A stretch of 32,000 bases of DNA, taken from positions 9,237-41,236 of the forward strand of contig NZ_JAHDSX010000020.1 in the NCBI RefSeq assembly GCF_020969955.1, given 5' to 3'. The notes beneath the pieces are model-generated. The model saw only the letters and a program-made list of their open reading frames with translations, searched no databases and had not been told where the DNA came from. Below, in pieces: positions 5,284-32,000 of this stretch. The position numbers and the translations under genes were made by a program. Origin of the DNA: Allobaculum fili. Lineage in GTDB: Bacteria; Bacillota_I; Bacilli_A; Erysipelotrichales; Erysipelotrichaceae. The stretch's first letter is position 1, and every line of letters starts with the position of its first letter.

Positions 5284-5883
5284 GACGGCTTTTCGATCCA
5301 TGGTCTGACGGATCGGTTGAAGGCTGAACAAAGGCAGCTCTTGCCGTATGCAGGCCGAAAAGAAAGGAAACAGGGCCGGCTTTAAAAGTTAACAGCCGTT
5401 AAGAATTTACCGGACCGGATGAGGGTGCCAAACTCCCCGAAAAGAAGAGGAAAATCATCCATTTTGCGATTCTGGCTCATAGCGGCCAGCCAATTTATCG
5501 TCCAAAAACCGACATACTCGGGTATTTGTCTGTCCTTGAACGTCCCTTAAACGGCCCAATTGGGTCAAAATCGGGGAAAAAGCCGTTTATGAATCGTTAT
5601 GGTTGACGAAATCATACATATTGGATATCCGATTTTCTTCTGAAAAAAAAACATCATTTATGTTGTTCTAAATGGAATAGAGAAGTGTGCGAATTGCTTT
5701 CAAAATTTCATGAATTATCACACGAATTCCCACAAACTATTTTGAGGTCCTTTACTTAAAGGGCCTCAGGAAAAAACCACGTTAGAAATTCTTAAGAAAT
5801 TCCGAAGATATTTTTTGGGGAATTTTGCGTCTCAAAATAAGTCGTGCTAAGGTATGGATGTTCGAAAAAGAGGTGAGATAGAA

Positions 5884-7185
5884 ATGAATTTTGTTGAAAA
5901 ACACAGTAAACTTTTGGCAGTTGCCTTATGTCTTTGTGCTTCCGGCCCCATTCTTTCTACCGTTCATGCTTACGAAGTCCAGCCTGGCTGGCATTCCAAT
6001 GGAGAAGTAAGTTATTATGTATTTGACGATCACCAGAGAGCGAAAGGTCTCACGGTAATCGACGGCGCAACATACTATTTCGATCAGAACGGAGAAATGC
6101 AGCGCGGCTGGCAGAATATCAATAACGAAACTTATTACTTTGATAATAACGGTCAGGCCGTAACCGGCAAATCAGAAATCCAGGGTATGACCTATAACTT
6201 CCAGCAGAGTGGTGCTCTTGCAGCCGGCTGGAACGAAGACGGTACCTACAGCAACGAAAAAGGATTCCCGGTAGCTTCCACTTGGGTTAACGACGCAACT
6301 GGAAAATTTTACCTGGATGAAAACGGACAGGCTGTAAAAAATTCCTGGAAGGATCTCGATGGCGGACGTTACTATTTTGACGAAAATGGACGTACCGTAA
6401 TCGGTGAGATTCAGGCTGACGGAGCGGTTTATTATTCCGACGACCAGGGTCTTGTAAAGACTGGCTGGCGCGATGAAAACGGCGGACGTTACTACTATAA
6501 CGAAAACGGCGTTCTTAACACCGATACACTGAAGGATGTTGACGGAACCACTTACGCGTTCAACGCAGACGGTTCCCTGATGACCAGCACCACAATCGAC
6601 GGCTACAACGTAGACGAAAACGGTGTCGCAACTCTGATTCCTGTAGAACCAGAAGCACCGGTAGATACGCCTGTAACCGACAATACGGAAATTCTGGATA
6701 CAACAGAGCCGACAGTACCTGCACCAGATCCTAACGACGTTGTCGAAGAACCTGGCGTTGTGACCCCTGTTGATACTCAGCCGGATTATTCCGATCCAAT
6801 CGTTACCCCGGATCCAACTCCGACTCCGCAGCCGGATCCAGCTCCAGTAGAACCCACACCAGATCCAGCGCCTTCCTATGATAAGGCCAACACCATCTAT
6901 CAGGCAGCCATGAGCCAGCTTGGCGTATTCCAGGACTGCACGATGCTCGTTACCAACTCTCTTGCGGCAGCCGGCATTAACTTCCACGGATGGCCTCAGG
7001 ATTACGCAGTACTCGGTGACTGGACAAGCAACCCTGTTCCAGGTGATATCATCATCTACAGCGGACACGTTGCAATTTATGCCGGTAACGGCATGGCAGT
7101 ACACGGCGGATTCAACGGCAACACAACCGTTCTCTTCTCTGTAAACTGCACTTCCGTACTGATTGGCTACATTCACGTACGCTAG
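5884..7185 (+). CDS. Secreted cell-wall-binding-repeat protein with a C-terminal NlpC/P60-type peptidoglycan hydrolase domain
   Basis: The signal peptide ends in VHA|YE. About 10 choline-binding-type (CW_binding_1-like) 20-aa repeats follow (GW..(N/D)G..YYFD.NG). Next is a Pro/Thr/Asp-rich linker, then QDCTMLV ... GDIIIYSGHVAIYAGNGMAVHGG, which gives the Cys/His of the NlpC/P60 fold. The start is set at ATG 5884 (GAGGTG RBS 7 nt upstream) rather than the ORF-track ATG at 5854. Confidence 0.85.
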   Translation: MNFVEKHSKLLAVALCLCASGPILSTVHAYEVQPGWHSNGEVSYYVFDDHQRAKGLTVIDGATYYFDQNGEMQRGWQNINNETYYFDNNGQAVTGKSEIQGMTYNFQQSGALAAGWNEDGTYSNEKGFPVASTWVNDATGKFYLDENGQAVKNSWKDLDGGRYYFDENGRTVIGEIQADGAVYYSDDQGLVKTGWRDENGGRYYYNENGVLNTDTLKDVDGTTYAFNADGSLMTSTTIDGYNVDENGVATLIPVEPEAPVDTPVTDNTEILDTTEPTVPAPDPNDVVEEPGVVTPVDTQPDYSDPIVTPDPTPTPQPDPAPVEPTPDPAPSYDKANTIYQAAMSQLGVFQDCTMLVTNSLAAAGINFHGWPQDYAVLGDWTSNPVPGDIIIYSGHVAIYAGNGMAVHGGFNGNTTVLFSVNCTSVLIGYIHVR

Positions 7186-18422: not shown

Positions 18423-19193
18423 ATGAACTGTCCAATCTGTCATCAGCCCCTGCATAAGGAAAACCGCACCTGGAAATGCCCGAACAATCACGCGTTCGAT
18501 CAGGCCAGACAGGGGTATGTCAATCTCTGCCGCAAGCAGAAAGTCACCGGCGATAACGAAGCCATGTCGGCTGCCCGTACCCGCTTTCTCGAAAGCGGCG
18601 CCTATGATTTTTTACGCGAAGCCATCGCGAAAAAGATCCACGACCTCCATCCCAGAATGTACATCGATCTTGGCTGCGGAGAAGGCTATTACACCCGACG
18701 CTTTGCCAAGGAAGTCGAAGAAGGATACGGCATCGATTTAAGCCGTCCTTCCATTGCACATGCCGCCGGTCAGGACAAGCAGACGCAATACATTGTCGGA
18801 AGCATTTTTGAACTGCCGTTTGCCGATCTGAGCGCGGATCTGCTGACATCGATCTTTACGCCGATCCCCGCAAAGGAAGCCAGACGGGTTTTAAAAGAGG
18901 ACGGTTTACTGATCACAGTCGGACCCGGAAAAAACCATCATAAGGAACTGAAGGAAGTCCTGTATGAAAACGTCCGTCTCAACGATGAGCCAAAACAGCC
19001 GGAAGGCTTTGAACTTGTCGATCGTACGGAGCTGAGCGAGCTCGTTCATGTCGATGACGTCTGGAGCCTGCTGGAAATGACACCGTATCGCTACAAGTCA
19101 CCTGCTGAGGGCCTTGAGCGCGTCAAAAACCTGAAAAACGGTCTGGATGTCACCTTTGACTTTGTGATCAGCACCTGGAGAAAAGCAAAATGA
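18423..19193 (+). CDS. rlmA: 23S rRNA (guanine-N1)-methyltransferase, RlmA family
   Basis: 256 aa. N-terminal zinc ribbon CPICHQPL...WKCPNNHAFDQARQGYVNL, SAM motif DLGCGEGYY, overall colinear with E. coli RlmA. Confidence 0.9.
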   Translation: MNCPICHQPLHKENRTWKCPNNHAFDQARQGYVNLCRKQKVTGDNEAMSAARTRFLESGAYDFLREAIAKKIHDLHPRMYIDLGCGEGYYTRRFAKEVEEGYGIDLSRPSIAHAAGQDKQTQYIVGSIFELPFADLSADLLTSIFTPIPAKEARRVLKEDGLLITVGPGKNHHKELKEVLYENVRLNDEPKQPEGFELVDRTELSELVHVDDVWSLLEMTPYRYKSPAEGLERVKNLKNGLDVTFDFVISTWRKAK

Positions 19194-20508
19194 GAACAAA
19201 AATAAAAAAATGGGGAATCAACGGCGAAGGCATCGCCTACGTCAATAAGAAGGCGGTCTTCGTACACCCGGTGCGATTCCCGATGAAATCGTGGATATCG
19301 ATATTGATCACGACTTCGGCAGCTATGCGCAGGGTCATGTGGAAAAGATCGTCCAGGAAGCCCCGCGCCGGCGCAAATCGCCCTGTCCGATTTCGAAAGA
19401 ATGCGGCGGCTGTGCGCTGATGCATGTCGACTACAAAGGCCAGATCCGCATGAAAGAGCAGATCCTTAAGGAAGCGCTGCGCCGCTATGCGCACTATGAA
19501 GGACCGATTTTTCCTGTCATCAAAAATCCGGATCCTCTGCAGTACCGCAACGCCTGCAAGCTTCCCTTCGGCTTAAAAGACGGCAAAGTCACCACGGGCA
19601 TGTATGCGCGGGAAACCAATGATTTCGTTCCTGTTGAACGCTGTCTGATTCATGCCAAAGGTCTGGAACGGGCCCGCATGGAACTCAATACGCTGATCGA
19701 CCAGTCCGGACTTCCCGTTGCCGATAAAGAACATCCGGAAGGCCTGAAAAATCTGGTTCTGAAAGAATTTGACGGCAAAATCCATATCGTTCTGGTTACC
19801 GGAAAGATGGACATCCCGGAACGTCTGGTTGAGCAGATTCTGGAAAAGTCAGATCATGCCGCTTCCGTCTGGCAGTCCATTAAGGAACCGGACGATCCGG
19901 AACACGAACTGTTTGGCCGTCAGATGCTGCATCTGGGCGGCGATATGAAAATGACGCTTACGCTGGGCGAGTTCACGCTGAATCTTCTGCCCAAATCGTT
20001 TTTTCAGCTCAACACGAAACAGGCGCTCGCTTTATATACGCTGATCGAATCCTGGCTGCCGGATCATACCGATCTGATGGTCGAAGCCTATTGCGGCATC
20101 GGAGCCATCTCGCTTTTTGCGGCGGATAAAGCTAAAGAAATTATCGGTATCGAATCCGTAGAAGACGCAGTGGCCAACGCGAGTGAAAACGCACTGCTCA
20201 ACGGCAAGGAAAACCTTTCCTTCGTCTGTCAGGATGCGGCAACGGAACTGAAGCGGATTTCGCAGAAACGTCATGTCGATACGCTGGTCGTCGATCCGCC
20301 GAGAAGCGGTCTGGACCGTACCATGAAAGACGCCATCCTGAAAGCACAGCCGCAAAATCTGATCTACGTTTCGTGCAATCCGTCCACGCTAGGAAAAGAT
20401 CTGGACGTTTTGCAGAAGAAATACGCGATCGAATGCGTACAGCCTTTTGATTTCTTCTCGCAGACTCCGCACGTAGAGACAGCCGTAAAGCTTTCTCTCA
20501 AAAAATAA
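19190..20508 (+). CDS. 23S rRNA (uracil-5-)-methyltransferase, RumA/RlmCD family, interrupted by a 1-nt frameshift near 19268-19272 (candidate pseudogene or sequencing error)
   Basis: The frame starting at ATG 19190 (ATGA overlap with rlmA) encodes the start of a TRAM domain, MRTKIKKWGINGEGIAYVNKKAVFVHP. The domain continues in the -1 frame as GAIPDEIVDIDIDHDFGSYAQGHVEKIVQ. After that come the Fe-S cysteines CPISKECGGC, SAM motif EAYCGIGAISL, DPPRSG and catalytic YVSCNP. The ORF-track version (GTG 19291) lacks half of the TRAM domain. Confidence 0.85.
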
Positions 20509-20650
20509 AATTCCAAACGGAATCGATCGATCTTCTTTCCATTCCCTTCAAACCCTTCTGCTCCTTCTGTTCGTTTTATCTCTTCGATCCGTGGCCTGTC
20601 AGACGATGGAGACGCTGAAGATCCGAACAGGAGGGATAGATTCACAGAAC

Positions 20651-20700
20651 AAAATCCTCATGCCTCTGGATGATTTCCAGATGCATGAGGATTTTTCTTT
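20651..20700 (+). terminator. Rho-independent terminator (two-tier hairpin)
   Basis: AAAATCCTCATGC ... GCATGAGGATTTT outer stem, inner CTGGA/TCCAG pairing, followed by TCTTT. Confidence 0.75.
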
Positions 20701-21498
20701 AGCGCAGATCGGCTTTCTTAACGGCACGAAAGGCACCCGATCCGAGGGGGCCTGAAGACAGAGGACAGCGCAAATCCGCGCAGGAAAAAAAGCTGCCCAA
20801 AGGAGCGGACAGGCCATTTTCGGCGAAAGATCAAAGGATAGAAATAAATAAAAATAAGGTATAGAAACGCAAATAAATCCGTCGGATTTCACCAAGGCTC
20901 TCGCTAAAAATAATTACCGTAGTTGAAATATAAATAAATTCAAATTGGATAAATTAATACCAGAAAGTAAAAAGTGCAAACGATTGAAATAATTCAAATA
21001 TATATAAACTGTCAGAATAAAAGCATCATAAATTGAATACTGATTAATTTAGACAAAACCGTTAAGAAAAAGTACATCGCAAGCCACGAAAGCTGACACT
21101 ATTCTAAATACATTGAGGGGCTGACTCGCTTGCCCAGGCAAGCCATATGACCAGAAACGCCAACTGGTCTGCTGAGCAAAGAAGCCTGCTCTCGCTCAAA
21201 AATCCTGCACCTCAATTTCATTAGTATTTCGTTTTTCGAATGACCCGCTCATCTCTTTCTTTCCCAGCACATCGAATTCCTTGCTTTCCCGTCTCGGGTA
21301 AAACCAGGAACGCACGAAGATCATCATAAACCATCTAATCCTCAGGAAGAGAGTCCGGGTTTTGTACGGCAGCCCGAGCGCCCCGCTTTCGTATAACTTT
21401 ACGAACTTGAAAAAGAACGAAGATAAGAGATTTTACAATCCTTAAGAAAAATTCAAATCGATGATGCCCGATTCATCTCGTGGAAAGGACAGGCGTTT

Positions 21499-21783
21499 AT
21501 GAATAAAAACTCTCTGCGCCGCAAATCCCGCATTGAACTTCTCGAACTGCTGCTCGCCTCCCGGGAAGAAAATCAGAAGCTTCGCAAGGAAAACGAAGAA
21601 CTGAAAGCTCAGCTTGCGCAGCGACAGATCCATCTGGAAAACAGCGAATCGCTGGCACATGCGGCCTTGAAACTGGCCGGCGTATTTGAAGCAGCCGATC
21701 AGGCAGCTGCTCTCTATCTCGAAAGTCTGAAGGAGAATTATTCCGATCATGAATCAGAAGAATGCACCGAAGAAGCCCTCTGA
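21499..21783 (+). CDS. Small coiled-coil protein (94 aa), unknown function
   Basis: The basic N-terminus is followed by a heptad-like segment LLELLLASREENQKLRKENEELKAQLAQRQ, then SLAHAALKLAGVFEAADQAAALYLESL. Overlaps the signal peptidase gene by 35 nt. Confidence 0.6.
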   Translation: MNKNSLRRKSRIELLELLLASREENQKLRKENEELKAQLAQRQIHLENSESLAHAALKLAGVFEAADQAAALYLESLKENYSDHESEECTEEAL

Positions 21784-22351
21784 TCCAGACATGCCTTCCG
21801 TATCCGAGATCCGAAGCGAAATCGATCGCGTCCGCTATCGAAAACGCTACTGGAAATCGGTTCGCGGCATTCTTCAGACCATCCTGGTCGCGGCAGCGGT
21901 GGCCGTTCTGATTTCCATGTTATGGATGCCCGTTCTGGAAATTTACGGACCAAGCATGGCGCCTTCTCTGGAAGAAGGCGATATCGTTGCCGCCATCAAA
22001 AACAGCAAATTCGAAACGGGCGATGTCATCGCCTTCTACTACAACAACAAAATTCTCGTAAAACGCGTCATGGCCGGTCCAGGCGACTGGATCGACATTC
22101 ACGAAGACGGAACCGTTTTTGTGAATGGAGAAGAAATCGATGAACCCTATCTGACAGACAAAGCGTACGGAGATCCCGATATCGAATTTCCTTATCAAGT
22201 TCCCGAAGGACGCTGGTTCGTTCTCGGCGATCATCGAAGCATTTCCAAGGACTCCCGAAACGCAGAAATCGGCCCTATCGCTTCTGAAGATATTGTTGGA
22301 CGGCTCGTCTTCCGCCTCTGGCCCAACCCAGGACCAGCCGGCGACAGTTAA
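21749..22351 (+). CDS. Signal peptidase I (S26A), pilus-locus associated (SipA/LepA position)
   Basis: 200 aa with one N-terminal TM helix. Box B is GPSMAPSL (Ser nucleophile), box D is LVKRVMAGPGDWI (Lys general base), box E is VLGDHRSISKDSRN. Confidence 0.9.
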   Translation: MNQKNAPKKPSDPDMPSVSEIRSEIDRVRYRKRYWKSVRGILQTILVAAAVAVLISMLWMPVLEIYGPSMAPSLEEGDIVAAIKNSKFETGDVIAFYYNNKILVKRVMAGPGDWIDIHEDGTVFVNGEEIDEPYLTDKAYGDPDIEFPYQVPEGRWFVLGDHRSISKDSRNAEIGPIASEDIVGRLVFRLWPNPGPAGDS

Positions 22352-22676
22352 CTGTTTCTTCCATAATCCGGATTCATTGTCCTTCCGAATATGGATCCGA
22401 TTCACATCAATTCGTATAGGCAGTAAAGGTCTCTTGCCAGGGAAGGCAGAGTCGCCTTATTCATACAAAATGGCTTAAGCAAGCCAGAAAGAAGGGATAC
22501 GCAGACAAAAGAAGGTTTTACCCGTATCAAAACAGGAAAGGCTGAATCAATTCGATCCAACATCATTCCTTGATTTATCCCGGACGTTTACCTTCCTTTA
22601 CTGCAGGAGATCTGAATCGTCAGGAGTTGAATTCGAACAGCCCAAAAAGAGAAAAAGACAACAGAAAGGAAAAACA

Positions 22677-24236
22677 ATGAAATCCAGAAAATTTTTAATT
22701 TCATCCGCGATTGCCCTTTCGACAATGCTCGGAACTGCAGCGCCGATGATGAATGCGATGCCGATCTCAGCAACGACAGTAACTGTCTCCAATTTTGCAG
22801 AGGGACATGCTTTTACGGCTTATCAGATTTTTACCGGTAAGCTGGAAGGCGACAAACTTGTGGACATCGAGTGGGGAACCAGCGCTGATACAACAGAGCA
22901 AGCTGCAATTATTGCTGCATTAAAAGGAGACGATAGCCCGCTTTCGGCAGACAAAATTACAGCACTCGGAGACAACCCGAATGCTGCGGCTGTGGCTAAC
23001 GCAATTGATGGTCTTAATGCAGAACAAAGCCTGGCACTTGCTAAATTACTGCATCCAATTCTGACCGAGAATGGAAAAGCAATTACATCCAACACAACTG
23101 ACCTCACACCTGGCTACTATCTGATCAAAGATACAACAGCGGTTGATTCATCTGCCGATGACGTTATTGGTTTGAGCATTCTCCAGGTCGCCAATACTGA
23201 TGTAGTAATTACACCGAAAAACGCGAAACCAACCGTCGATAAAGAAGTTAGCGACAACGACAATCATGATGAGAGCAATACAGCAGGCTGGGGGGAAACG
23301 GCTGACCATGAAATTGGCGACACCTTCCAGTTCAGACTGACTGCTACAGTTGCACAGTATGCGGACATCAAAAACTACGATTCTTATAAGCTGGTATTCC
23401 ATGACACGCTGAGTGCTGGAATTGACTATGTCAGTGAAGGCAATCTGACTGCAGAGATGTTCGTTGGCGACAATACTACTGCAATTGAAGTACCAACAAC
23501 TACTGCAAAGGATGGCCAGAATCTGACAGTAACTATCGATAACCTGAAAGCTCATTTGCCTGCGGAAATTCAGGAGAATGACGCAATCAGCGTTGTTGTT
23601 ACCTACAATGCCAAACTGAATGCGCACGCTATGGTTGCTGAAAGTGGCGTTTCTGGGCTCTATAACAACAACAAGGTTTATCTGGAGTACTCCAACAATC
23701 CGAATGGGGAAGGAACAGGACAGACCAAAGAGGACTATGTATATGTCTTCACGTATAAACTGACCAACACGAAGACAGATAACATGGGAAACACCCTTCA
23801 GGGAGCCGAGTTCGTTCTTAAGAAAGGCGATCGGTTTGCTGCATTCACTAACGGCATTTTTAGCGGCTGGTCGACAGCGCAGGACGACACAACGAAGCTC
23901 ACATCTGGTGAAGATGGAACGTTCGTACTGACTGGTCTGGATGCAGGAACATACACCCTTGTCGAAACGAAAGCTCCGGAAGGTTATAAGCTGGCTGCTG
24001 ATACGACGATTACAATCACAGCCAGCCATAAAGAAGATGACGGCGGAGCTGCAGCGACAGTAACTTTATCAGGCGAGAACCACGAAGGTGCTACGGTAGT
24101 TGACTCCAAAATCTCCAACCTGCCTGAAACCGGCGGCATGGGTACGACTCTGTTCTATGCAGCTGGCGGAATTCTTGCTGCTGGCGCAGTAATCGCACTG
24201 GCTGCAGGCAAGAAAGCAAAAAAAGAAGAAGACTAA
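22677..24236 (+). CDS. LPXTG-anchored backbone (major) pilin, isopeptide/Cna-B-type Ig-fold protein
   Basis: 519 aa with a signal peptide. AFTAYQIFTGKL N-domain signature, pilin-motif-like TDVVITPKNAKP, E-box YTLVETKAPEGYKL. Sorting signal is LPETGG plus a hydrophobic span plus KKAKKEED. Confidence 0.88.
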   Translation: MKSRKFLISSAIALSTMLGTAAPMMNAMPISATTVTVSNFAEGHAFTAYQIFTGKLEGDKLVDIEWGTSADTTEQAAIIAALKGDDSPLSADKITALGDNPNAAAVANAIDGLNAEQSLALAKLLHPILTENGKAITSNTTDLTPGYYLIKDTTAVDSSADDVIGLSILQVANTDVVITPKNAKPTVDKEVSDNDNHDESNTAGWGETADHEIGDTFQFRLTATVAQYADIKNYDSYKLVFHDTLSAGIDYVSEGNLTAEMFVGDNTTAIEVPTTTAKDGQNLTVTIDNLKAHLPAEIQENDAISVVVTYNAKLNAHAMVAESGVSGLYNNNKVYLEYSNNPNGEGTGQTKEDYVYVFTYKLTNTKTDNMGNTLQGAEFVLKKGDRFAAFTNGIFSGWSTAQDDTTKLTSGEDGTFVLTGLDAGTYTLVETKAPEGYKLAADTTITITASHKEDDGGAAATVTLSGENHEGATVVDSKISNLPETGGMGTTLFYAAGGILAAGAVIALAAGKKAKKEED

Positions 24237-24256
24237 TCTTCAATAACCCACAGGAT

Positions 24257-24319
24257 TCAGGGAGTCTGACTCCCTGAGTCTGGAAAGCCTGGAAGAGTGA
24301 TTTTCCAGGTTTTCCAGAC
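24257..24319 (+). promoter_or_regulatory. Two adjacent stem-loops between the backbone pilin and the sortase gene
   Basis: Hairpin 1: TCAGGGAGT-CTG-ACTCCCTGA (24257-24277). Hairpin 2: GTCTGGAAA-G-CCTGGAA-loop-TTCCAGG-T-TTTCCAGAC (24278-24319). No clean T tract follows. Confidence 0.55.
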
Positions 24320-24345
24320 TCTCCAGAAAAGAGGAGGAGACGGGT

Positions 24346-25194
24346 TTGAAGTTTTTAAGGAAACATCTAAGAACAATTCTGATTCTTGTCATTCTCATCG
24401 CCGGGCTTGGTCTTCTGGCCTATCCAAGTTTTTCAAACTGGTGGAACACCACGCTTGGATCGCATTCCATTGCCCATTATGAGCAGGCGGTTGTGGAAAC
24501 AGATGAAGAAGATTTGAAAGCCATGCGCGAACAGGCCAATGCCTATAATACGGATCTTTTAACAAGAGCAGACCGCTATCATCCAACCCCAGAACAGCAT
24601 GCGCAGTACGGCGAACTGTTAAAAATCGGGGATTCAACGGTCATGGGTTCGATTTCGATCCCGCGAATCAAGGTGAATCTTCCGATTTACCACGGAACTT
24701 CCGAAGACGTCCTGGCTGCAGGAGCCGGTCATCTGGAAGGTTCGTCTCTTCCGGTTGGCGGAACGGGAACGCATGCGGTCATTACAGGGCATAGAGGCCT
24801 TCCTTCCGCAAAGCTGTTCACAGATCTGGATCAGCTGGAAGAAGGAGACCTTTTCGTTTTAAACGTTCTAGGCGAAAAACTGACGTACGCGGTGGACTCG
24901 ATTCGAATCGTTTTGCCGGCTGAACTCGATCAGCTGACGATCGATCCGACGAAAGACCAGGTCACTCTGGTTACCTGCACTCCGTATGGAATCAACACGC
25001 ACCGCATTTTAATCACGGGTCTGCGTACGGAAAACGTTGAGGAGTGGTCACTGGATCAGGAAGCGGGAATGATCGACGAGAAAATCGTCGCCCTCTGGAT
25101 CGGCGCCATTATTCTCGGGGTCCTGCTCATCGTGATGCTTATAAAGACAAGAAAGCCAAAGTCGAAGAAAGGAGAAGCCGATGACTCGATTTAA
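24346..25194 (+). CDS. srtC: Class C (pilin-polymerising) sortase
   Basis: 282 aa. TTG start 6 nt after GAGGAGGAG. N-terminal TM and C-terminal TM (ALWIGAIILGVLLIVMLI) are typical of class C. Catalytic His is in THAVITGHRG, Cys in TLVTCTPYG, Arg in HRILITG. Confidence 0.92.
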   Translation: MKFLRKHLRTILILVILIAGLGLLAYPSFSNWWNTTLGSHSIAHYEQAVVETDEEDLKAMREQANAYNTDLLTRADRYHPTPEQHAQYGELLKIGDSTVMGSISIPRIKVNLPIYHGTSEDVLAAGAGHLEGSSLPVGGTGTHAVITGHRGLPSAKLFTDLDQLEEGDLFVLNVLGEKLTYAVDSIRIVLPAELDQLTIDPTKDQVTLVTCTPYGINTHRILITGLRTENVEEWSLDQEAGMIDEKIVALWIGAIILGVLLIVMLIKTRKPKSKKGEADDSI

Positions 25195-25981
25195 AAAACT
25201 GTTTGGAATTGTTTTGACTCTCATGCTGATGGTGCCGATGACAGTTCGAGCCGCAGAAGAAATTGATCTGAGTCGAACAGGTTCTCTGCAGATGACGATT
25301 CACAAAGCCGATGGAACGCCAATCTCCGGCGGTTCCATGACGATCATTCCGGTGGCGGATATCGTTCTCGACGAAGAAACCAATCCAAAATTTCAACTGA
25401 ATGAAACGTTTGCCGAAACGAATGCGGATCTTTCCAACCCGCAAAGAGAAGCGGTCATTGAATATCTGGAAGATTTCGTAAAGAAACACAAGATCGAGGG
25501 AACCACACAGACTGTGGATCGTAACGGCATCGCCAGCTTTGGCGAGTGTCCGTTAGGTCTGTATCTCGTAATGCAGAACGAAGCGTCTCCTGGCTACAAG
25601 CCCATCCGTTCGTTTTTAATTTCGGTTCCAAATTTCGATGAAGAAGAACAGACCTATACCTACGATGTAATCGCCCTGCCGAAAATGAATACGGATATTG
25701 AGATTGACAGTTCTACATCGTCCTCGGATTCGTCTTCTTCCGAATCTTCTTCGAGTTCAACTTCATCGAGCATGAGCTCTTCAAACTCAGACGATTCATC
25801 GCATTCATCCAGTAAATCGACCAGCAATTCCATCAGCAGCTCAAACAGCGCACCCAGACCGAAAAAAACGCCGCCAACAGGAGCGCAGACCGGAATGACG
25901 CTTTTTGAAAGCCTGTTTATTCTTTCCGGTCTTCTGCTGATCGGTCTGTATTTCCTGAAGCGAAAAGAAACATCGAAATAA
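25181..25981 (+). CDS. Minor pilin (candidate basal/anchor pilin) with a Ser-rich stalk and non-canonical TPPTG sorting signal
   Basis: 266 aa with a signal peptide (VRA|AEE). One Ig/Cna-B-like domain carries an E-box-like YLVMQNEASPGYKP and ALPKMN. A run of about 48 aa is almost pure Ser/Asp/Thr. Then TPPTG plus a hydrophobic span plus KRKETSK. Overlaps srtC by 14 nt. Confidence 0.75.
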   Translation: MTRFKKLFGIVLTLMLMVPMTVRAAEEIDLSRTGSLQMTIHKADGTPISGGSMTIIPVADIVLDEETNPKFQLNETFAETNADLSNPQREAVIEYLEDFVKKHKIEGTTQTVDRNGIASFGECPLGLYLVMQNEASPGYKPIRSFLISVPNFDEEEQTYTYDVIALPKMNTDIEIDSSTSSSDSSSSESSSSSTSSSMSSSNSDDSSHSSSKSTSNSISSSNSAPRPKKTPPTGAQTGMTLFESLFILSGLLLIGLYFLKRKETSK

Positions 25982-26115
25982 ACGCGAAATAAGAACTACG
26001 CATAAAAAATGAACCGGAGATCCTTCAGCCGACGAGCGGGTTTTCCACGCCGTCAGGCTTTCTGCAGGGAAATCCGATTCACGGTTTTGAAGCAATTAAG
26101 AAATGGAGGAAGCGT

Positions 26116-29100
26116 ATGTCTGGAATGAAAAGATTCTTTCAGAAAAAACATCCGATTTTAATCCGAGTCCTTTCCATACTGACTCTTTTTGCGACTGCCT
26201 ATACGCTGATTCTGCCTGCAACAGCCCTGGCAAGACCTCAGTACTACTGCGGTATGGAAAAACATGTACACAGCGATACCTGCGAGGAGAACTGCACCCG
26301 GATTGAACACGAACATACACGACAATGCGAAGCCAACCTCGAGGCGGATGTGGAAGATGAATCCGTCTGGACAGCGGCTTTTGCGGATGTAATGGCTGAG
26401 CCGTCTTCTTCTGGCAAAGCGGCAGCAATCGCTCTTTCGCAAGTTGGCTCACATGTAAGTTCATCTAACTTTCAGGTTCTTGAAGACGGCAGTGAAGCAC
26501 CATATTCCCGATATGGAGCCTGGGAAGGAAATCCGTATACGACAAACCTTCAGGAAAGCTTCCTTCGTTTTGTCTACAGCTATGCCGGAGCAGATATGAG
26601 CAGCTTTGCCAGTCAGTCCGTCAAGGATTGGATGGATCCTCTTCTTGAGGGCGGCCTGCTGCGTTCGGCTGACCAGGCATCGGAAGGCGATCTCGCCTTT
26701 GTCGAAGATGAGGGAAAACTGAAAGGCGCGGTTGTCATTAAAGGAAATGAAGAAGCGCTGGATGTTGTGGAAGCCGATGAGGGAGAGATCGTTTCCAAAT
26801 CGGTAGCCAATGAACATGTCTATGGAACGGTTCGTGTTCTTTTAGATGCCGATCCCGCTGAAGCAGCTTCAACAGATGCTTCCACGGAAGAAAGCGCAGC
26901 GTCAAAAAAAGCGGAGAACGCAAATCCGGCTGCCGCAAATCAGGTCCTCTCTTACACACCTGCTCAAATTTCACCGCAGGCTGACGAAACAGCAGAGTCC
27001 TGTCCTGCAGCCAAATTTCCAGAATCGAATCCGGAAGGAAATCTCGGCGACGAGGGATATAACGAACATCCGACTGCAGCGAAGATTTATTATCGCTATC
27101 CTCAGAATTCAGGAAACACCCCGACCGAATGGACAGAAATTGAGCCGGATGACGATAACACGGAAAATGACATTACGTACAAGATGAACGTCGAGTTCAA
27201 AATGGTCGTGAATTATGAAAATCTGAAATACACAACCATCGTGGACAACAATCATTCATTCTATTATTCGATTCCTGCTTTCCTCCATTCCAATATGGCA
27301 GCAGAGGGAACGCCTCTCATGCACACCTTCGAAAGAGAAGATGGATCAACGAAGACAATCGAACTGGGAAGACTTCATGCCTGTCCAACAGAAGATCATC
27401 TCCATATCGATTACAGCAACTATCTGGAACTGGAAGAAAATGATATTAAAACAGGTCAATTCGAATATTCGCTTTTAGCCAATCGAGAAGAAATCTGGGA
27501 AAACCCGAATCAGGAATACCAGATTGGAGATAAAAACTACACCTTTAAGTTTGATACCTTGTCCAGCTACAACGATGTGACCGTCCACGATTTCAAAAAA
27601 GCAAAAAATCCAGAAGGCGGCAATCACGAGAACTATTCCTATGACGAAGAGGGCAACACAATCATTCATTATCAGATCAGCTTTGTGACGGATGATCAGA
27701 TTGCTCCCGATGCAATCGTCGATGACTGGTGGCCCAACTACAGCTCATGGAGCCAGAAATTTAAAGAAGGTTTTACCCCTTATGAAAATATTCAGTTTTT
27801 CTCCGTTGCAAGGGATGGAACCGCGACGGAGATTCCACAGGATCAGTACAGCTGCGTTCTGAGCCGGAATGGCTCCAGTGACCCGCTTGAACTTACGTAT
27901 CACCCCGTAACGAATCCAAAAGAAACTGTAACGCATACGGTAGAAGGCGCACCGGCGCCGCGTGCAGGGTTTTATCTAGGAACGCTGCAGCCCAATACGC
28001 AGTACAGACTGACTTATACCGCCAAATATTCGAAAAACGCGCTAAATCATGGTGTACAGGACATTCGAAACGATTCACGCATTCGATTTGGTACGAGCGA
28101 TGGCAGAGGCTATGACTGGGAAGATGACCGGCTTCAAAGCACGCTTACCGTTGGGAAATCCAATCTTGGACAGGAAACAAGGACGGATGACGACGGGAAC
28201 CTCTACCTGACCTACAAACTCAGCGTCATTGCCGGCGAATACAACATGGATGACTGGCCTGTCGGCGTTGTCACCGACTACATGAACTTTCAGGTGGACC
28301 ATGTGGTGCAGCCTGGCTACTTGTCCTATGTCTCCATGGTGGACTGCCAGTCTTCATCCGATGACCAGAATTACACCTCTATTCCTATAAATGAAGTAAC
28401 TTTTACAGACCAGGATAATGGAACAATTCGCGAATACCGGATCCCAGCACCTGAAACCATGTCGAGGGGCCAGCGTTACTACATTAAATGCCAAATCCGG
28501 ATTGACCGGGAACTGATGGTGAAAATGGCCACAGAGAATAAGGAACAGATGACGTATACCAACCTGGCGTATACAGGCGACACGTACAGCAGCTCAGGAC
28601 CGCATTCGGGAACCGTTTCTCAGAACATTCAGAAATCTGAGATTGTAACCAAAGCCAAGGGCGAAATGCTGACAGAAAACACGCCGATGACCATGACCGG
28701 CGATGTTTACGATGCAGCGGGTCAGAAGACGAATGTCACTGAATTCACAGTTCCCATCCACTCCGTACAGTACTCCATCAAAATCAACGAAGATGGAAAG
28801 GCAAATGTAGGATCGGCTGCTCTGACCGACGAGCTTTCCGTCAGCGGAACCATTTCCGATCAGTTCAGCTTTACAGGCTATGCAGCTCTGAAAGTTTATG
28901 ACGGCCGACAGGATCCTGGAAAAGAAGCGATGGGGACGATCTGGTTCAAACTGCCGGACGACCAGCAGAGTTTTCAGTTTGATCTTTCCAAATACAAGGC
29001 TTCAGTGGATGAGATAAAAGGGGCACACACACCGGAACACGCACTCAGCTACGAACTGATTTACTATGTTCGCGCGAAAGACGGTGCGGATAACCTGATG

Positions 29101-31734
29101 CTTACAAACGAACTGAATGGTTCCGTCGGCGTAGGCATTGGAGACAGTGTAGTCCCTGTGGAGCAGCACATTCACGTTTCCCATCTGATCGTTACAAGTG
29201 AAGAACTGAGCGCGGTAAAACGCGGCGTCTCTTATCTCAGCACGCAGGAAGATCATGAGGCCAATGGTACATGGAAAGCCGGTCGACAAATCTGGCTGGT
29301 TGAGGTCAGCGGATCGACGATCAGCAAAGAATCAACCCTTTCGGATACCCTTACCAATCAGACGAATTTGTCGGGCGAGTACTTCACCCATTACGTACCA
29401 GGAGAATCCGTGATTGGTCTGTACAGAGGAACCCTTGAATTCGCGTTTGACGGCACCCAGAATATCGAGGGAGATGTCAGTCATACCTCGACGAGCTATC
29501 CAGCAGGCAGCTTGCCTTCTTATACGTATCAGGATTTTTTAACTGCCTTTAACAGCCAGACAAGCCGGATTGATGAAGATCTGTATACAGTGACGTATGC
29601 TTCCGATAATCGAACCGTAAACATCCGGTTTAAAGAGAACTATTCTTTAATCGATGAAAATGGAGATAAGCAGAAGCTGTATATTCTGCTCCAGTCCACG
29701 CCTGATGAAAATTCGTTCAACGGAGGGGAGCAGGATCTGATCTGGAAACGCAATCAGGCCAATATATCCACTGGAAATGGTTTTTCAGCCATTCAGGGAA
29801 ATGAAACGAAAAAGCTGGCGGATGCGCAATATGGTTTCCGTTCGTACTACAGCATCCATAAAAGTGCCGGAAGCCGGTTCGCGTATCAGAACGGCGAGTT
29901 TAAAAAGCTGGATGATTCAAATCTGAACAGTGTTCTTTCTCTATTCAATACAAATCTCAAGCCGATTCTGGATGAAAAGATTGCGGACGGCGAACTGTCG
30001 AATCATGAAATTTACGATGACTGGACCCTTCTTGTAAACAGACAGGGCGGTGATACAAATTCGAATACCCCTTACTCTGGAACGTTCAAAATTGTGGATA
30101 CGATTTCTGATAATGCAAGTTTCGTAGGAGCCTTCCTGGCGAATACTGGCGAAAATCAGCCGACCATCGACAGCATTACCGTTGAAGGGCAGAAGGTAAC
30201 GATTATTGTCAGCAACGTTAGTCCTCGCCAGGCTTTCACCATCCATTTGATTTCCAAGCTGAATGTGGACTGGGATGAAGCGATCGCATCGGATTCTCGA
30301 ATTTCCGTGGTGAACCATGTTGACCTGTATCATGACCAGAACCGAATTGGAGTCGACGAAGAGACGAAAAATACGAAACTGTCCAATCCAATTTCGAAAG
30401 ATTCCGCAACGCTGGTCGACGATACAACTGCACTTTCCGGGAAATCGACGATTGAATACTCGATTGATCTCAATGAAAATCGACTGGATCTGATTGAGAG
30501 TGCAGATACCATCGATCTGCAGGATACGTATGATCCGGATGTCATTGAAATCATTCCAGATACGATTCAGGTCACAGCAGATGGAGCAGCGTATACCGAC
30601 TTTACGGTTGAATTCCGTAAAGAAGAAGGAACTGTCATCATTCGTAACCTTCCGGATCAGAAACGAATTCACATTACGTATTCCGCTTCTCTTCAGGTTC
30701 CGCCTGGAGAAAATTCATTCTCCATCAGTAACAGCTGCACGTGGCTGGGCTATGGAAAAGACGCACCATCTTCTACGTTTACCAAGTGGGCCACCAATAC
30801 GATTGGCGGTACTTCATCGAGCGTGAACATCACCCCGAAAGTAACCCTGAAAAAAGTCGACGCCAACAATGCCACGCAGGGCCTTGCCGGAGCAACGTTT
30901 TCATTCACTGCGGGAACGGTGACGAATGGGGTGTTTAAAGCGAATGAAAATAACAGTTATTCTTTCACTGCCACTACGGATTCGAACGGGCAGATTATCG
31001 CAAACGAAGCGCATGGAAATAAACTGGAGCCGAATATCTGGTACAAAGTGGAAGAAACGAGCGTACCGGCCGGATACGATCCGAATTCGATCGAAGATCC
31101 TCAATACTTCTATATTTATAAGGATTTACAGCATTTCCCGGCGGAAAACGAGCGCCCGAGAGAAGGGAGGGTGAACATTTCCGAACTGAGTCCGGATAAG
31201 ATTCTTTATCTGACTTTCACAAACAAGAAACCTGTCTTCTCAATCACGATTCGCAAATCGTTCTCTGAAGCCGGTCTTCTGCCAGGAAACTATACCTTTG
31301 GCGTTTATGACCGAGAATCCGATCCGAACGATGCATCACAGCAGCCGCTTAAGAAAGTGACCATTACGGTCACACCGCAGGATGCTTCCGACTCGACGGA
31401 AAAGACAGCGGATGCGGTGATCGACAATCTGGAAATCCGGAACGATCCGTATTACGTGTATGAGCTCGGCGAAGATGGCAAGCCCTGCCCTAAATACTGG
31501 ACTTCTTCGGCAAACGACCAGCTTTTCGAAGTCATCTATCCGGCAAACGGCAATGGGGTCACGTATTCCAATGCGTCCGAGACGGATCGCAATGTGATCT
31601 TTGAAGTGCAGAACCATCCGATTTACGAACTTCCAGAGACTGGCGGTGTTGGTACGTCTATCTTCTATGCAGGCGGAAGTGCACTGGTTCTGAGTGCAGC
31701 CTGTCTTGTGCTGCTTCTTCGCCGCAAGGATTAA
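26116..31734 (+). CDS. Giant LPXTG surface adhesin (1872 aa), candidate pilus tip adhesin
   Basis: RBS GGAGGA. Signal peptide ...LPATALA|RP. N-terminal Cys/His cluster and a CHAP-like segment, then a long Thr/Ser/Asn/Asp/Tyr-rich region. C-terminal Cna-B-like modules (VTLKKVDANNATQGLAGATFSF ... WYKVEETSVPAGYD; ITIRKSF...YTFGVYD). Sorting signal is LPETGG plus a hydrophobic span plus RRKD. Confidence 0.88.
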   Translation: MSGMKRFFQKKHPILIRVLSILTLFATAYTLILPATALARPQYYCGMEKHVHSDTCEENCTRIEHEHTRQCEANLEADVEDESVWTAAFADVMAEPSSSGKAAAIALSQVGSHVSSSNFQVLEDGSEAPYSRYGAWEGNPYTTNLQESFLRFVYSYAGADMSSFASQSVKDWMDPLLEGGLLRSADQASEGDLAFVEDEGKLKGAVVIKGNEEALDVVEADEGEIVSKSVANEHVYGTVRVLLDADPAEAASTDASTEESAASKKAENANPAAANQVLSYTPAQISPQADETAESCPAAKFPESNPEGNLGDEGYNEHPTAAKIYYRYPQNSGNTPTEWTEIEPDDDNTENDITYKMNVEFKMVVNYENLKYTTIVDNNHSFYYSIPAFLHSNMAAEGTPLMHTFEREDGSTKTIELGRLHACPTEDHLHIDYSNYLELEENDIKTGQFEYSLLANREEIWENPNQEYQIGDKNYTFKFDTLSSYNDVTVHDFKKAKNPEGGNHENYSYDEEGNTIIHYQISFVTDDQIAPDAIVDDWWPNYSSWSQKFKEGFTPYENIQFFSVARDGTATEIPQDQYSCVLSRNGSSDPLELTYHPVTNPKETVTHTVEGAPAPRAGFYLGTLQPNTQYRLTYTAKYSKNALNHGVQDIRNDSRIRFGTSDGRGYDWEDDRLQSTLTVGKSNLGQETRTDDDGNLYLTYKLSVIAGEYNMDDWPVGVVTDYMNFQVDHVVQPGYLSYVSMVDCQSSSDDQNYTSIPINEVTFTDQDNGTIREYRIPAPETMSRGQRYYIKCQIRIDRELMVKMATENKEQMTYTNLAYTGDTYSSSGPHSGTVSQNIQKSEIVTKAKGEMLTENTPMTMTGDVYDAAGQKTNVTEFTVPIHSVQYSIKINEDGKANVGSAALTDELSVSGTISDQFSFTGYAALKVYDGRQDPGKEAMGTIWFKLPDDQQSFQFDLSKYKASVDEIKGAHTPEHALSYELIYYVRAKDGADNLMLTNELNGSVGVGIGDSVVPVEQHIHVSHLIVTSEELSAVKRGVSYLSTQEDHEANGTWKAGRQIWLVEVSGSTISKESTLSDTLTNQTNLSGEYFTHYVPGESVIGLYRGTLEFAFDGTQNIEGDVSHTSTSYPAGSLPSYTYQDFLTAFNSQTSRIDEDLYTVTYASDNRTVNIRFKENYSLIDENGDKQKLYILLQSTPDENSFNGGEQDLIWKRNQANISTGNGFSAIQGNETKKLADAQYGFRSYYSIHKSAGSRFAYQNGEFKKLDDSNLNSVLSLFNTNLKPILDEKIADGELSNHEIYDDWTLLVNRQGGDTNSNTPYSGTFKIVDTISDNASFVGAFLANTGENQPTIDSITVEGQKVTIIVSNVSPRQAFTIHLISKLNVDWDEAIASDSRISVVNHVDLYHDQNRIGVDEETKNTKLSNPISKDSATLVDDTTALSGKSTIEYSIDLNENRLDLIESADTIDLQDTYDPDVIEIIPDTIQVTADGAAYTDFTVEFRKEEGTVIIRNLPDQKRIHITYSASLQVPPGENSFSISNSCTWLGYGKDAPSSTFTKWATNTIGGTSSSVNITPKVTLKKVDANNATQGLAGATFSFTAGTVTNGVFKANENNSYSFTATTDSNGQIIANEAHGNKLEPNIWYKVEETSVPAGYDPNSIEDPQYFYIYKDLQHFPAENERPREGRVNISELSPDKILYLTFTNKKPVFSITIRKSFSEAGLLPGNYTFGVYDRESDPNDASQQPLKKVTITVTPQDASDSTEKTADAVIDNLEIRNDPYYVYELGEDGKPCPKYWTSSANDQLFEVIYPANGNGVTYSNASETDRNVIFEVQNHPIYELPETGGVGTSIFYAGGSALVLSAACLVLLLRRKD

Positions 31735-31788
31735 AATTCCAAATCACAAATCCAAAAAGCAGACTTAAGAAACACCGTATTCAAAATC

Positions 31789-31834
31789 AATCGCCCCGGA
31801 TCGGCAATATCCTTCGATCCGGGGCGATTTTTAT
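31789..31834 (+). terminator. Rho-independent terminator after the adhesin gene
   Basis: 15-bp perfect stem AATCGCCCCGGATCG / CGATCCGGGGCGATT, 11-nt loop, then TTTTAT. Confidence 0.85.
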
Positions 31835-31963
31835 ACGGAGTCGGTGAACAGTTTGAAAATTCTCCGTTTGTTTGTAAGTGTCAAACAATCGACGGGTATA
31901 CGCGAGACTGAATATTAGATACGCTAAACGGGATCCCTTTCGAGATCCCGCTTGGCGTATTTT

Positions 31964-32000
31964 TTATTCTTCATCGTTTTCTTCATACTTCGGATCCGGT
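31964..32000 (-). CDS. 3' end of a - strand gene running off the window (...PDPKYEENDEE*)
   Basis: The - strand frame is open from the window edge to TAA (complement of 31964-31966). The hairpin CGGGATC/GATCCCG (31929-31950) lies just downstream on that strand. Only 12 codons are visible. Confidence 0.3.
   Translation of the reverse strand, partial: PDPKYEENDEE

Follow-up and report, generated by a model that had tools for sequence, protein, structure and literature searches.

The window analysed here, a 32,000-nucleotide (nt) stretch of Allobaculum fili DNA (contig NZ_JAHDSX010000020.1, positions 9,237 to 41,236 of the forward strand), carries between positions 21499 and 31734 six co-directional open reading frames (ORFs) on the + strand. 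We interpret them, with a probability of about 0.8, as an operon-like cassette for a covalently polymerised, sortase-assembled pilus of the SpaA/SpaH type. A sequence-only reading of the same DNA had described six co-directional genes with overlaps or short gaps, and the ORF table agrees with it exactly, down to the coordinates. The locus and its boundaries comprise the following features.

20651..20695, + strand: upstream intrinsic terminator; it ends the rlmA/rumA housekeeping unit and forms the 5' boundary of the locus
20696..21498, no strand assigned: AT-rich non-coding leader of about 800 bp, the presumed site of the promoter and of any regulatory sites
21499..21783, + strand: coiled-coil ORF cc94, 94 amino acids (aa), first gene of the cassette
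21749..22351, + strand: type I signal peptidase (SPase; Peptidase_S26, TIGR02227)
22677..24236, + strand: predicted major (shaft) pilin, 519 aa (NF033902, TIGR04226, GramPos_pilinBB, SpaA)
24346..25194, + strand: predicted class C sortase, 282 aa (NF033745)
25181..25981, + strand: small one-domain pilin, 266 aa, likely the base pilin (D1-type Ig domain, TPPTG)
26116..31734, + strand: large LPETG adhesin, 1872 aa, likely the tip pilin (SpaA domain, LPXTG anchor, N-terminal module shared with other adhesins)
31790..31833, + strand: intrinsic terminator that closes the operon

The cc94 and SPase genes overlap by 35 nt (21499-21783 and 21749-22351) and the sortase and 266-aa genes by 14 nt, with gaps of 325 nt between the SPase and 519-aa pilin genes, 109 nt between the pilin and sortase genes and 134 nt between the 266-aa and 1872-aa genes. 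The gene calls of the window are matched by those of near-identical metagenomic contigs.

The six genes form a block shared with Allobaculum mucilyticum

The upstream terminator consists of a 20-nt inverted repeat, 95% complementary, followed by a T-run (-29.4 kcal/mol, z = -8.2), and the terminator closing the operon of a 14-bp GC-rich stem followed by TTTTT (-29.5 kcal/mol, z = -6.0); none was detected in the 325-nt gap between the SPase and pilin genes. From the single terminator after the last gene we infer that the ancillary pilin genes are co-transcribed within one unit. The sortase is 79% identical to its orthologue in A. mucilyticum strain 128 (Erysipelotrichaceae), where all six genes recur in identical order. 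DNA similarity to that strain runs from 21496, at the start of cc94, to 31708, where the adhesin gene ends. The flanking DNA of the two is unrelated, and the A. mucilyticum cassette is closely preceded by a DDE transposase (locus L001, 5450-6754). The confinement of the similarity to this block, the unrelated flanks and the adjacent transposase argue that the six genes travel as one unit, to which cc94 and the SPase belong. The terminator-bounded block is a genuine gene cluster and not a chance pattern, and the sequence-only description of a self-contained sortase-pilus locus is supported. Wider comparisons were made with a set of 48 SrtC-anchored genome loci having at least 8 kb upstream; related loci were gathered by SrtC similarity, so that the synteny frequencies given below describe this sortase clade only.

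A predicted SpaH/EbpB-type shaft pilin and its class C sortase

The 519-aa protein is a predicted three-domain shaft pilin of the SpaH/EbpB type. It matches the SpaH/EbpB major pilin model NF033902 at 95.8 bits (cutoff 95) and the isopeptide-domain model TIGR04226 at 74.8 bits, above its cutoff, and contains GramPos_pilinBB and SpaA domains. Its pilin motif VVITPKN (aa 176-182, 23202-23222) is a near-canonical TPKN with Lys181 as the candidate acceptor, its E-box YTLVETKAPEGY (aa 426-437, 23952-23987) contains E430, and its sorting signal LPETGG lies at 24120-24137. An exact look-up of this pilin's sequence gave no matching record. Alignments with solved pilins from Streptococcus sanguinis (9uvm and PilA, 8wxd) and with Clostridium perfringens CppA (5xcc) span the whole protein, the best E-value being 2e-31. 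Weaker matches include Spb1 of group B Streptococcus (GBS; 4uzg, E = 2e-7), RrgB and SpaD, and neither an FctA nor a Spy0128 structure is among its 32 PDB hits. In an alignment of 43 homologues from related loci, K181, E430 and LPxTGG are each conserved in at least 85% of the sequences, and the same holds for Lys, Asn and Asp positions of the kind seen in internal isopeptide triads.

The sortase is predicted to be a class C enzyme, of the pilus-polymerising type. It matches the class_C_sortase model NF033745 at 270 bits, far above the cutoff of 160, and no class B model is found among its NCBIfam matches. The active-site motif TLVTC lies at 24964-24978, the histidine in ITGHRG, and the protein ends in a transmembrane anchor. 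Profile hidden Markov model searches with the substrates and the sortase, the check proposed by the sequence-only reading, thus returned the pilin, SpaA and class C sortase families, and the VVITPKN, E-box, TPPTG and LPETGG motifs are all present where that reading had placed them.

A one-domain pilin encoded directly after the sortase

In the 266-aa protein a D1-type Ig domain is followed by a disordered, Ser-rich linker, the motif TPPTG (aa 230-234, 25868-25882), a transmembrane segment and a basic tail. It matches D1 of SpaD (4hss) with an E-value of 3e-8, in an alignment that covers the pilin motif (YNVVAYPK in SpaD, YDVIALPK here) and is limited to the N-terminal domain of major pilins. 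The candidate lysine of this motif, Lys168 in YTYDVIALPK (25655-25684), is invariant in 19 homologues. An AlphaFold2 model built with these homologues has a predicted local distance difference test score (pLDDT) of about 90 for aa 30-165, and its best Foldseek matches are D1 of SpaD, CppA and FimP (E = 4e-9). The Ig-type pilin fold, for which the sequence-only reading had proposed structure prediction as a check, is found in this model.

Homologues of the small pilin come after srtC in many loci. Their sorting signals are LPQTG (with the ending LPQTGQLWWP) in Clostridia and KPSTA, KPNTA or IPNTA in Erysipelotrichaceae. MAFFT paired the LPQTG of distant small pilins with GAQTG and not with TPPTG, and the tails of close relatives favour TPPTG as the counterpart. 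Since KPSTA, KPNTA or IPNTA stands at the corresponding position in Erysipelotrichaceae, TPPTG is no random string but a variant of the signal that is specific to the lineage. A single pilin-motif domain, a divergent sorting signal of its own and a gene directly after srtC fit what is expected of a base pilin, and this is the likely role of the protein.

Small sortases of 180-223 aa are encoded after the minor pilin in many related loci (L016 11827-12498, L026 7597-8229, L084 15334-15969, L088 8433-8978). None of them reaches the cutoff of any NCBIfam sortase class model, and they accompany the LPQTGQLWWP signal. Both the window and A. mucilyticum have lost the small sortase gene, and in both the signal of the small pilin is a different one.

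The signal peptidase retains its catalytic residues

The SPase matches Peptidase_S26 (5e-33) and TIGR02227 (3e-35; 121 bits against a cutoff of 47). It retains both residues of the catalytic dyad, Ser69 in GPSMAPS (21953-21955) and Lys105 in VKRV (22061-22063), as well as box E (GDHRSISKDSR, 22226-22258), and has one transmembrane segment and a conserved cytoplasmic N-terminal helix. Its best PDB sequence match is the active Staphylococcus aureus enzyme SpsB (3e-17), with SipA (4n31) and LepA (4k8w) at about 1e-13. A comparison of 54 SPase-family proteins from related loci yielded two cleanly separate classes. The members of the class to which the window's enzyme belongs are 46-81% identical to each other, are encoded upstream of pilins and always keep the SM, KR and GDHR motifs, which are likewise kept in all SPase homologues linked to the coiled-coil gene. 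Members of the second class, at about 25% identity, are always encoded between two sortase genes and have the Ser replaced by Gly or Ala and the Lys by Arg; this class is a putative SipA-like pseudo-peptidase outside the streptococci. The intact dyad and box E, together with membership of a conserved class, predict that the window's SPase is a working, catalytically competent peptidase.

The dyad-less proteins (240-320 aa) occur mostly in metagenome-assembled genomes (MAGs) of rumen Clostridiales and still score above the NCBIfam cutoff for SPase I (loci L009, L010, L013, L014, L015, L020, L022, L036, L051, L061, L076 and L079). A conserved, charged helix on the cytoplasmic side, N-terminal to the transmembrane segment, is common to the pilus-linked SPases of the active and of the dyad-less class and follows the pattern P(S/T)xxx(L/I)ExE(L/I)xRx(R/K)Y; in the window it reads PSVSEIRSEIDRVRYRKRY, in aa 1-40 (21749-21870). 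Housekeeping SPases such as Bacillus subtilis SipS are not known to have such a helix.

A coiled-coil gene precedes and overlaps the signal peptidase gene

An active-type SPase gene lies upstream of the sortase, on the same strand, in 37 of the 48 loci and in several families; the dyad-less type lies downstream in seven, and four or five have neither type. A homologue of cc94 adjoins the SPase gene on its upstream side in 29 of the 37 active-SPase loci and is absent from the remaining eight, Dubosiella among them. All five independent contexts of cc94 homologues that we examined have the order coiled-coil gene, SPase, tip, pilin, SrtC, minor pilin, the last sometimes followed by a small unclassified sortase. 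The coiled-coil gene overlaps the start of the SPase gene here and in other lineages, and we propose that cc94 is a conserved accessory protein translationally coupled to the SPase.

The AlphaFold2 model of cc94 is one long helix, and the protein is predicted to be cytoplasmic. It matches no family in Pfam or NCBIfam, and neither PADLOC nor a profile search of PDB sequences gave anything meaningful. The family nevertheless comprises 4569 clusters (50% identity) at E<=1e-3 and 3446 at E<=1e-10. Neither cc94 nor the SPase has a match in a plasmid collection by blastn or tblastn. The long N-terminal 'extensions' of some members, among them response-regulator, PEP-utiliser and ParB pieces, were discounted as evidence of a regulatory role for cc94, because they resemble gene calls that have been fused and that contain an MTDKEL start internally. 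Some members of the family have C-terminal DivIVA-like coiled-coil extensions, and one NCBI record names a member (family P0040-P0187) a 'DNA repair protein'.

The large adhesin has moved to the 3' end of the operon

The usual distance between the SPase and sortase genes in related loci is 6-7.4 kb, because an LPXTG adhesin of 1000-2200 aa and the shaft pilin are encoded between them. A short spacing like that of the window occurs only in A. mucilyticum and one Ruminococcus MAG. About 35 related loci have a homologous adhesin between SPase and pilin, and the genes of Dubosiella, a sister genus in the same family, run in the canonical order of SPase, adhesin, pilin and SrtC. The 3' position of the adhesin gene in the window is therefore the result of a derived rearrangement. 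The sequence-only reading was right that the adhesin had moved to the 3' end, although the appropriate reference is the Clostridial class and not the FCT region of Streptococcus pyogenes. The module of coiled-coil gene, active SPase, tip adhesin, pilin, SrtC and minor pilin is widespread in gut Clostridia.

The adhesin has a leader with the sequence LILPATALA (26206-26232) and, at its other end, a SpaA/Cna-B-type domain (aa 1575-1668; SpaA, 8e-8) and an LPXTG anchor, with LPETGG at 31630-31647. About 1300 aa have no assigned fold. The sorting region, LPETGGVGTS, closely resembles that of the shaft pilin, LPETGGMGTT. Two C-x4-H-x-H-x3-C motifs, CGMEKHVHSDTC and CTRIEHEHTRQC, stand right after the leader (26248-26328, aa 45-71). 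This motif, for which Pfam offers no model and which resembles a metal-binding knuckle, is present in one to six copies in tip-position adhesins elsewhere (L005, L016, L021, L025, L028, L040, L084 and others). Among the ORFs directly downstream of related SPases, the leader pattern occurs in 25/35 and the Cys/His motif also in 25/35; the latter is found in none of 76 shaft or small pilins. The shared N-terminal module starts with an n-region that is long and basic, followed by a hydrophobic core with PAx(T/S/A)(M/L) at its end and by C-x4-H-x-H-x3-C motifs; it ties the window's adhesin to the tip-position adhesins and supports the relocation of its gene to the 3' end. A search with the first 700 aa of the adhesin returned three homologue hits. 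The domain at aa ~100-235 (~26410-26800) is CHAP-like but degenerate. In the relatives P0037 and P0038 Pfam recognises a true CHAP domain, with GDWCAMF and (N/D)HVG; in the window and in A. mucilyticum other residues stand in place of the catalytic Cys and His (NLQESF, KGAVV). A domain of the peptidoglycan-amidase type at a pilus tip is unexpected.

The 1872-aa protein is likely to be the tip pilin, and the profile and structure evidence as a whole agrees with the earlier assignment of the three substrates to tip, shaft and base. In the A. mucilyticum orthologue approximately the last 210 aa, including LPETG, are cut off by an in-frame stop (EPAQ*FYIYK at L001 16757-16759, against EDPQYFYIYK in the window, 31102-31104, the Tyr1663 codon). 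This stop recalls the ancillary-pilin pseudogenes sfp2 of Streptococcus suis and pitA of Streptococcus pneumoniae.

Genomic setting

No credible ORF was found in the leader (20696-21498), and an Rfam scan of 20000-32000 was empty. We also considered a phase-variable invertible promoter upstream of the cassette, because tyrosine recombinase genes flank two related loci; no convincing inverted repeats were found in the leader and no recombinase in the window, and the idea was rejected. The recombinase (Phage_integrase) genes concerned lie directly upstream of the cassette in two Clostridia loci (L087 6031-6939 and L091 8809-9669), the second of which has two pilus loci in tandem. Mobile-element genes upstream of the cassettes of relatives could mean mobility or recombinase-controlled expression.

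The remaining 21 kb of the window is housekeeping in nature (ThrRS, Ham1, SpoU, two M16 peptidases, S4, EzrA, NifS, ThiI, RlmA, RumA). The sequence-only reading had noted that the locus encodes no RofA/RlrA/AraC-type regulator and no second sortase, and this can be extended to the entire 32-kb window, which includes 21 kb upstream and 270 bp downstream of the locus. At 5854-7185 a 443-aa protein with choline-binding repeats and an NlpC/P60 domain suggests a choline-decorated cell wall in the source Erysipelotrichaceae organism. The rumA gene (19190-20508) starts in the ORF table at a GTG at 19291 (405 aa), whereas a near-identical metagenomic contig calls a protein of 438 aa that includes the TRAM domain and begins at the rlmA stop; the longer, 438-aa form is probably correct.

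Comparison with characterised pilus loci

The closest characterised relatives of the locus are the srtF cluster of S. suis and the PI-2b cluster of GBS, SipF, orf and lep being compared here by their published descriptions. The S. suis cluster consists of sipF, sfp2, sfp1 and srtF; its sortase is of class C, and both catalytic residues, Ser and Lys, are retained in SipF (PMC2797073). It resembles the window in having an active-type SPase as its 5' gene, a class C sortase, and an ancillary adhesin with a major pilin (PMC2797073). Its order of SPase, adhesin, pilin and sortase is identical to that of the related Clostridia loci and differs from that of the window, where the adhesin is 3', an extra one-domain, base-type pilin is present and the first gene encodes a coiled coil.

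GBS PI-2b likewise has a small conserved ORF and then an SPase at its start, three pilins, a class C sortase and no nearby regulator. The order after lep is ap1, spb1, srtC1, ap2, srt2. The cluster differs from the window in having a second sortase (Srt2) and a non-canonical pilin motif in Spb1, whereas the window has a near-canonical TPKN and its adhesin at the 3' end. By position alone, cc94 is an analogue of the PI-2b 'orf', and overlaps the SPase gene. The published descriptions are as follows: orf-lep stands at the start of PI-2b, which lacks a regulatory gene in its vicinity (PMC5249243), the adjacency of ancillary pilin 1 (AP1), backbone pilin (BP) and SrtC agrees with PMC12224707, the pilin motif of Spb1 is non-canonical (PMC4420484), the S. 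agalactiae SPase homologue has been reported with an intact dyad (PMC4049620), and the SPase homologues of GBS and pneumococcus are required for pili (PMC7900414).

The S. pyogenes FCT-2/3/4 regions (cpa, sipA/lepA, fctA, srtC, fctB) share with the window an SPase-family gene, a backbone, a sortase and a small basal pilin, and the logic of tip, shaft and base. Only the SPase-BP-sortase-small pilin part of the FCT order (AP1, sipA, BP, sortase, AP2, with a RALP or AraC regulator in the region) matches the window, however, and the window has an intact Ser69/Lys105 dyad, a class C sortase, a pilin with TPKN, E-box and LPETG, and no regulator. FCT SipA has Asp48 and Gly85 in place of the dyad, lacks peptidase activity, is found only with a class B sortase and an FctA-type pilin, and is thought to act as a chaperone (PMC4049620, PMC7900414). 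FctA has two domains, no YPKN motif and non-LPXTG sorting signals, and RofA/Nra/MsmR regulators are encoded in the region (PMC4049620, PMC7900414). PI-2 of S. pneumoniae and the mitis group (pitA, sipA, pitB, srtG1, srtG2) is likewise a compact islet without a regulator, in which an SPase-like gene sits between the adhesin and backbone genes. Two of its five genes encode sortases, and its PitB has VTPTG and lacks a pilin motif and an E-box (PMC3178606). In the window, in contrast, there is a single sortase, of class C, and the pilin combines a pilin motif with an E-box and LPETG.

The sequence and fold relatives of the shaft pilin and of the small pilin's domain are Corynebacterium diphtheriae SpaA/SpaD-type pilins, C. 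perfringens CppA, S. sanguinis PilA and Actinomyces oris FimP. The same assembly chemistry is expected of SpaA/SpaD-type pilins (pilin-motif Lys, E-box, LPXTG, class C sortase), although their operons have no signal peptidase gene and most of their base pilins are larger or have canonical signals. The statement in the sequence-only reading that islands with a signal peptidase homologue beside the backbone pilin and SrtC are of the FCT and PI-2 type is incomplete as a rule, since the S. suis srtF cluster, GBS PI-2b, the pilus locus of C. perfringens VR-10B and those of many gut Clostridia carry one as well (PMC2797073, PMC5249243, PMC8088525). What is new here is an uncharacterised locus with a derived gene order within the known srtF/PI-2b kind.

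Alternative explanations

The sequence-only reading had placed the locus in the FCT/PI-2 architectural class, and in that case the SPase homologue would be a non-catalytic, SipA-type chaperone for polymerisation. The sub-order SPase, backbone, sortase, small pilin does mirror sipA, fctA, srtC, fctB, the pili of S. pyogenes and S. pneumoniae depend on SipA homologues (PMC7900414), and SipA and LepA are among the structures that the window's SPase matches (4n31 and 4k8w, at about 1e-13). We nevertheless consider this explanation highly improbable, since the comparison fails on the defining features of the class. Where SipA has Asp48 and Gly85 (PMC4049620), the window's enzyme has Ser69 and Lys105 and an intact box E, and its best PDB match is the active SpsB (3e-17). 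The sortase is of class C (270 bits), as opposed to the class B sortase of FCT-2/3/4 (PMC4049620, PMC7900414), and there is one, compared with two in PI-2. The pilin is a three-domain protein of the SpaH/EbpB type with pilin motif, E-box and LPETG, unlike FctA or PitB (PMC3178606). A truly dyad-less class does exist elsewhere in Clostridiales, between two sortases, and the window's enzyme lies outside it. One might instead suppose that cc94 and the SPase are an unrelated upstream housekeeping unit and that the pilus operon starts at the 519-aa pilin. The 325-nt gap before the pilin gene, the resemblance of the enzyme to an ordinary active SPase I, and the very large size of the cc94 family, fused gene calls of which put members beside ptsI, parB and a response regulator, would all be compatible with this, as would the survival of S. 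suis pili after sipF deletion (PMC2797073). It is very unlikely all the same: both genes lie within the block common to A. mucilyticum, outside which the flanks differ, and no terminator was detected in the gap. Furthermore, 37/48 related loci, from several families, encode an active SPase upstream and in the same orientation, all five contexts of cc94 homologues are pilus operons, and the pilus-linked SPases share a special cytoplasmic N-terminal helix.

A more serious rival, though one that we still regard as unlikely, is a two-part pilus of shaft and small pilin, with the 1872-aa protein an independent wall adhesin attached by the housekeeping sortase. Its gene follows that of the presumptive base pilin across a 134-nt gap, it lacks a VWA, thioester or other recognised tip-pilin domain as well as a PDB relative, its A. 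mucilyticum orthologue has a premature stop, and LPETG is also a standard housekeeping-sortase signal. On the other hand, its leader, CHHC motifs and CHAP-like N-terminus match the tip-position adhesins of about 25 related operons, LPETGGVGTS is close to the shaft's LPETGGMGTT, it has C-terminal SpaA/Cna-B-type stalk domains as tip pilins do, and its gene lies within the co-inherited cassette, upstream of the only terminator.

We therefore favour a dedicated six-gene pilus cassette headed by cc94 and the SPase, and several observations count against it. A simple scan of 20700-21498 found no sigma-70 consensus, and 325 nt separate the SPase and pilin genes. TPPTG is non-canonical, and no sortase for it is encoded in the window. 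The search for a PDB sequence relative of the adhesin, or for a recognised tip-pilin domain in it (VWA, thioester), found none, and the stop in A. mucilyticum may mean that the adhesin is dispensable or not pilus-borne. The synteny frequencies come from loci chosen by their SrtC, and the SPase is non-essential in S. suis, where polymers are still made after sipF deletion, although they are weaker (PMC2797073). Expression, polymer formation and the role of each subunit are themselves what we infer from the features of the locus.

A model for pilus assembly

In our model of the cassette, the three substrates would be exported by Sec and their leaders removed. The operon's own SPase would cleave the leaders or improve their cleavage, most plausibly that of the tip adhesin's leader, which is unusual in being long and basic. 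The class C sortase would cut the LPETG of the 1872-aa adhesin between Thr and Gly and join the adhesin to Lys181 of the first shaft pilin, and shaft pilins would then be joined head to tail through LPET-Lys181 isopeptide bonds. Transfer of the shaft threonine to Lys168 of the 266-aa pilin would end polymerisation, and TPPTG of this pilin would direct attachment to peptidoglycan, for which a housekeeping sortase with its gene elsewhere and the class C sortase are the two candidates. In A. oris, SrtC2 can also carry out wall anchoring, and an unlinked active SPase, LepB2, is needed for pili (PMC9282373); such anchoring by a pilus sortase offers a route by which anchoring could occur here without a second sortase.

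A more tentative proposal, which we consider rather unlikely, is that cc94 and the active SPase form a dedicated maturation module for one class of tip adhesin, defined by a long basic leader ending in PAx(T/S/A) before (M/L) and by one to six C-x4-H-x-H-x3-C motifs. These motifs, which presumably bind metal, would sit at the extreme N-terminus of the mature protein, the would-be distal tip of the fibre. In this scheme cc94 would dock on the SPase and gate or localise cleavage, and processing of the adhesin would license the start of assembly; the choice of the SPase N-terminal helix as the docking site is speculation. If it were true, the proposal would explain why SPase genes are embedded in pilus operons, and cc94 would be a new general accessory factor of Gram-positive pilus biogenesis, from a family of >3000 clusters that has no curated model.

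Significance

Taken alone, the locus in the window is an ordinary pilus operon. Its comparison with related loci corrects the view of SPase-bearing pilus islands as a peculiarity of streptococcal FCT and PI-2: in gut Clostridia and Erysipelotrichia, the majority of the pilus operons in this sortase clade start with an active-SPase module, to which a conserved coiled-coil partner often belongs. The active and dyad-less classes lend themselves to a comparison of what signal peptidases encoded in pilus operons do in assembly. For Allobaculum, which are mucus-associated gut bacteria, a pilus with a very large tip adhesin would be a plausible attachment organelle.

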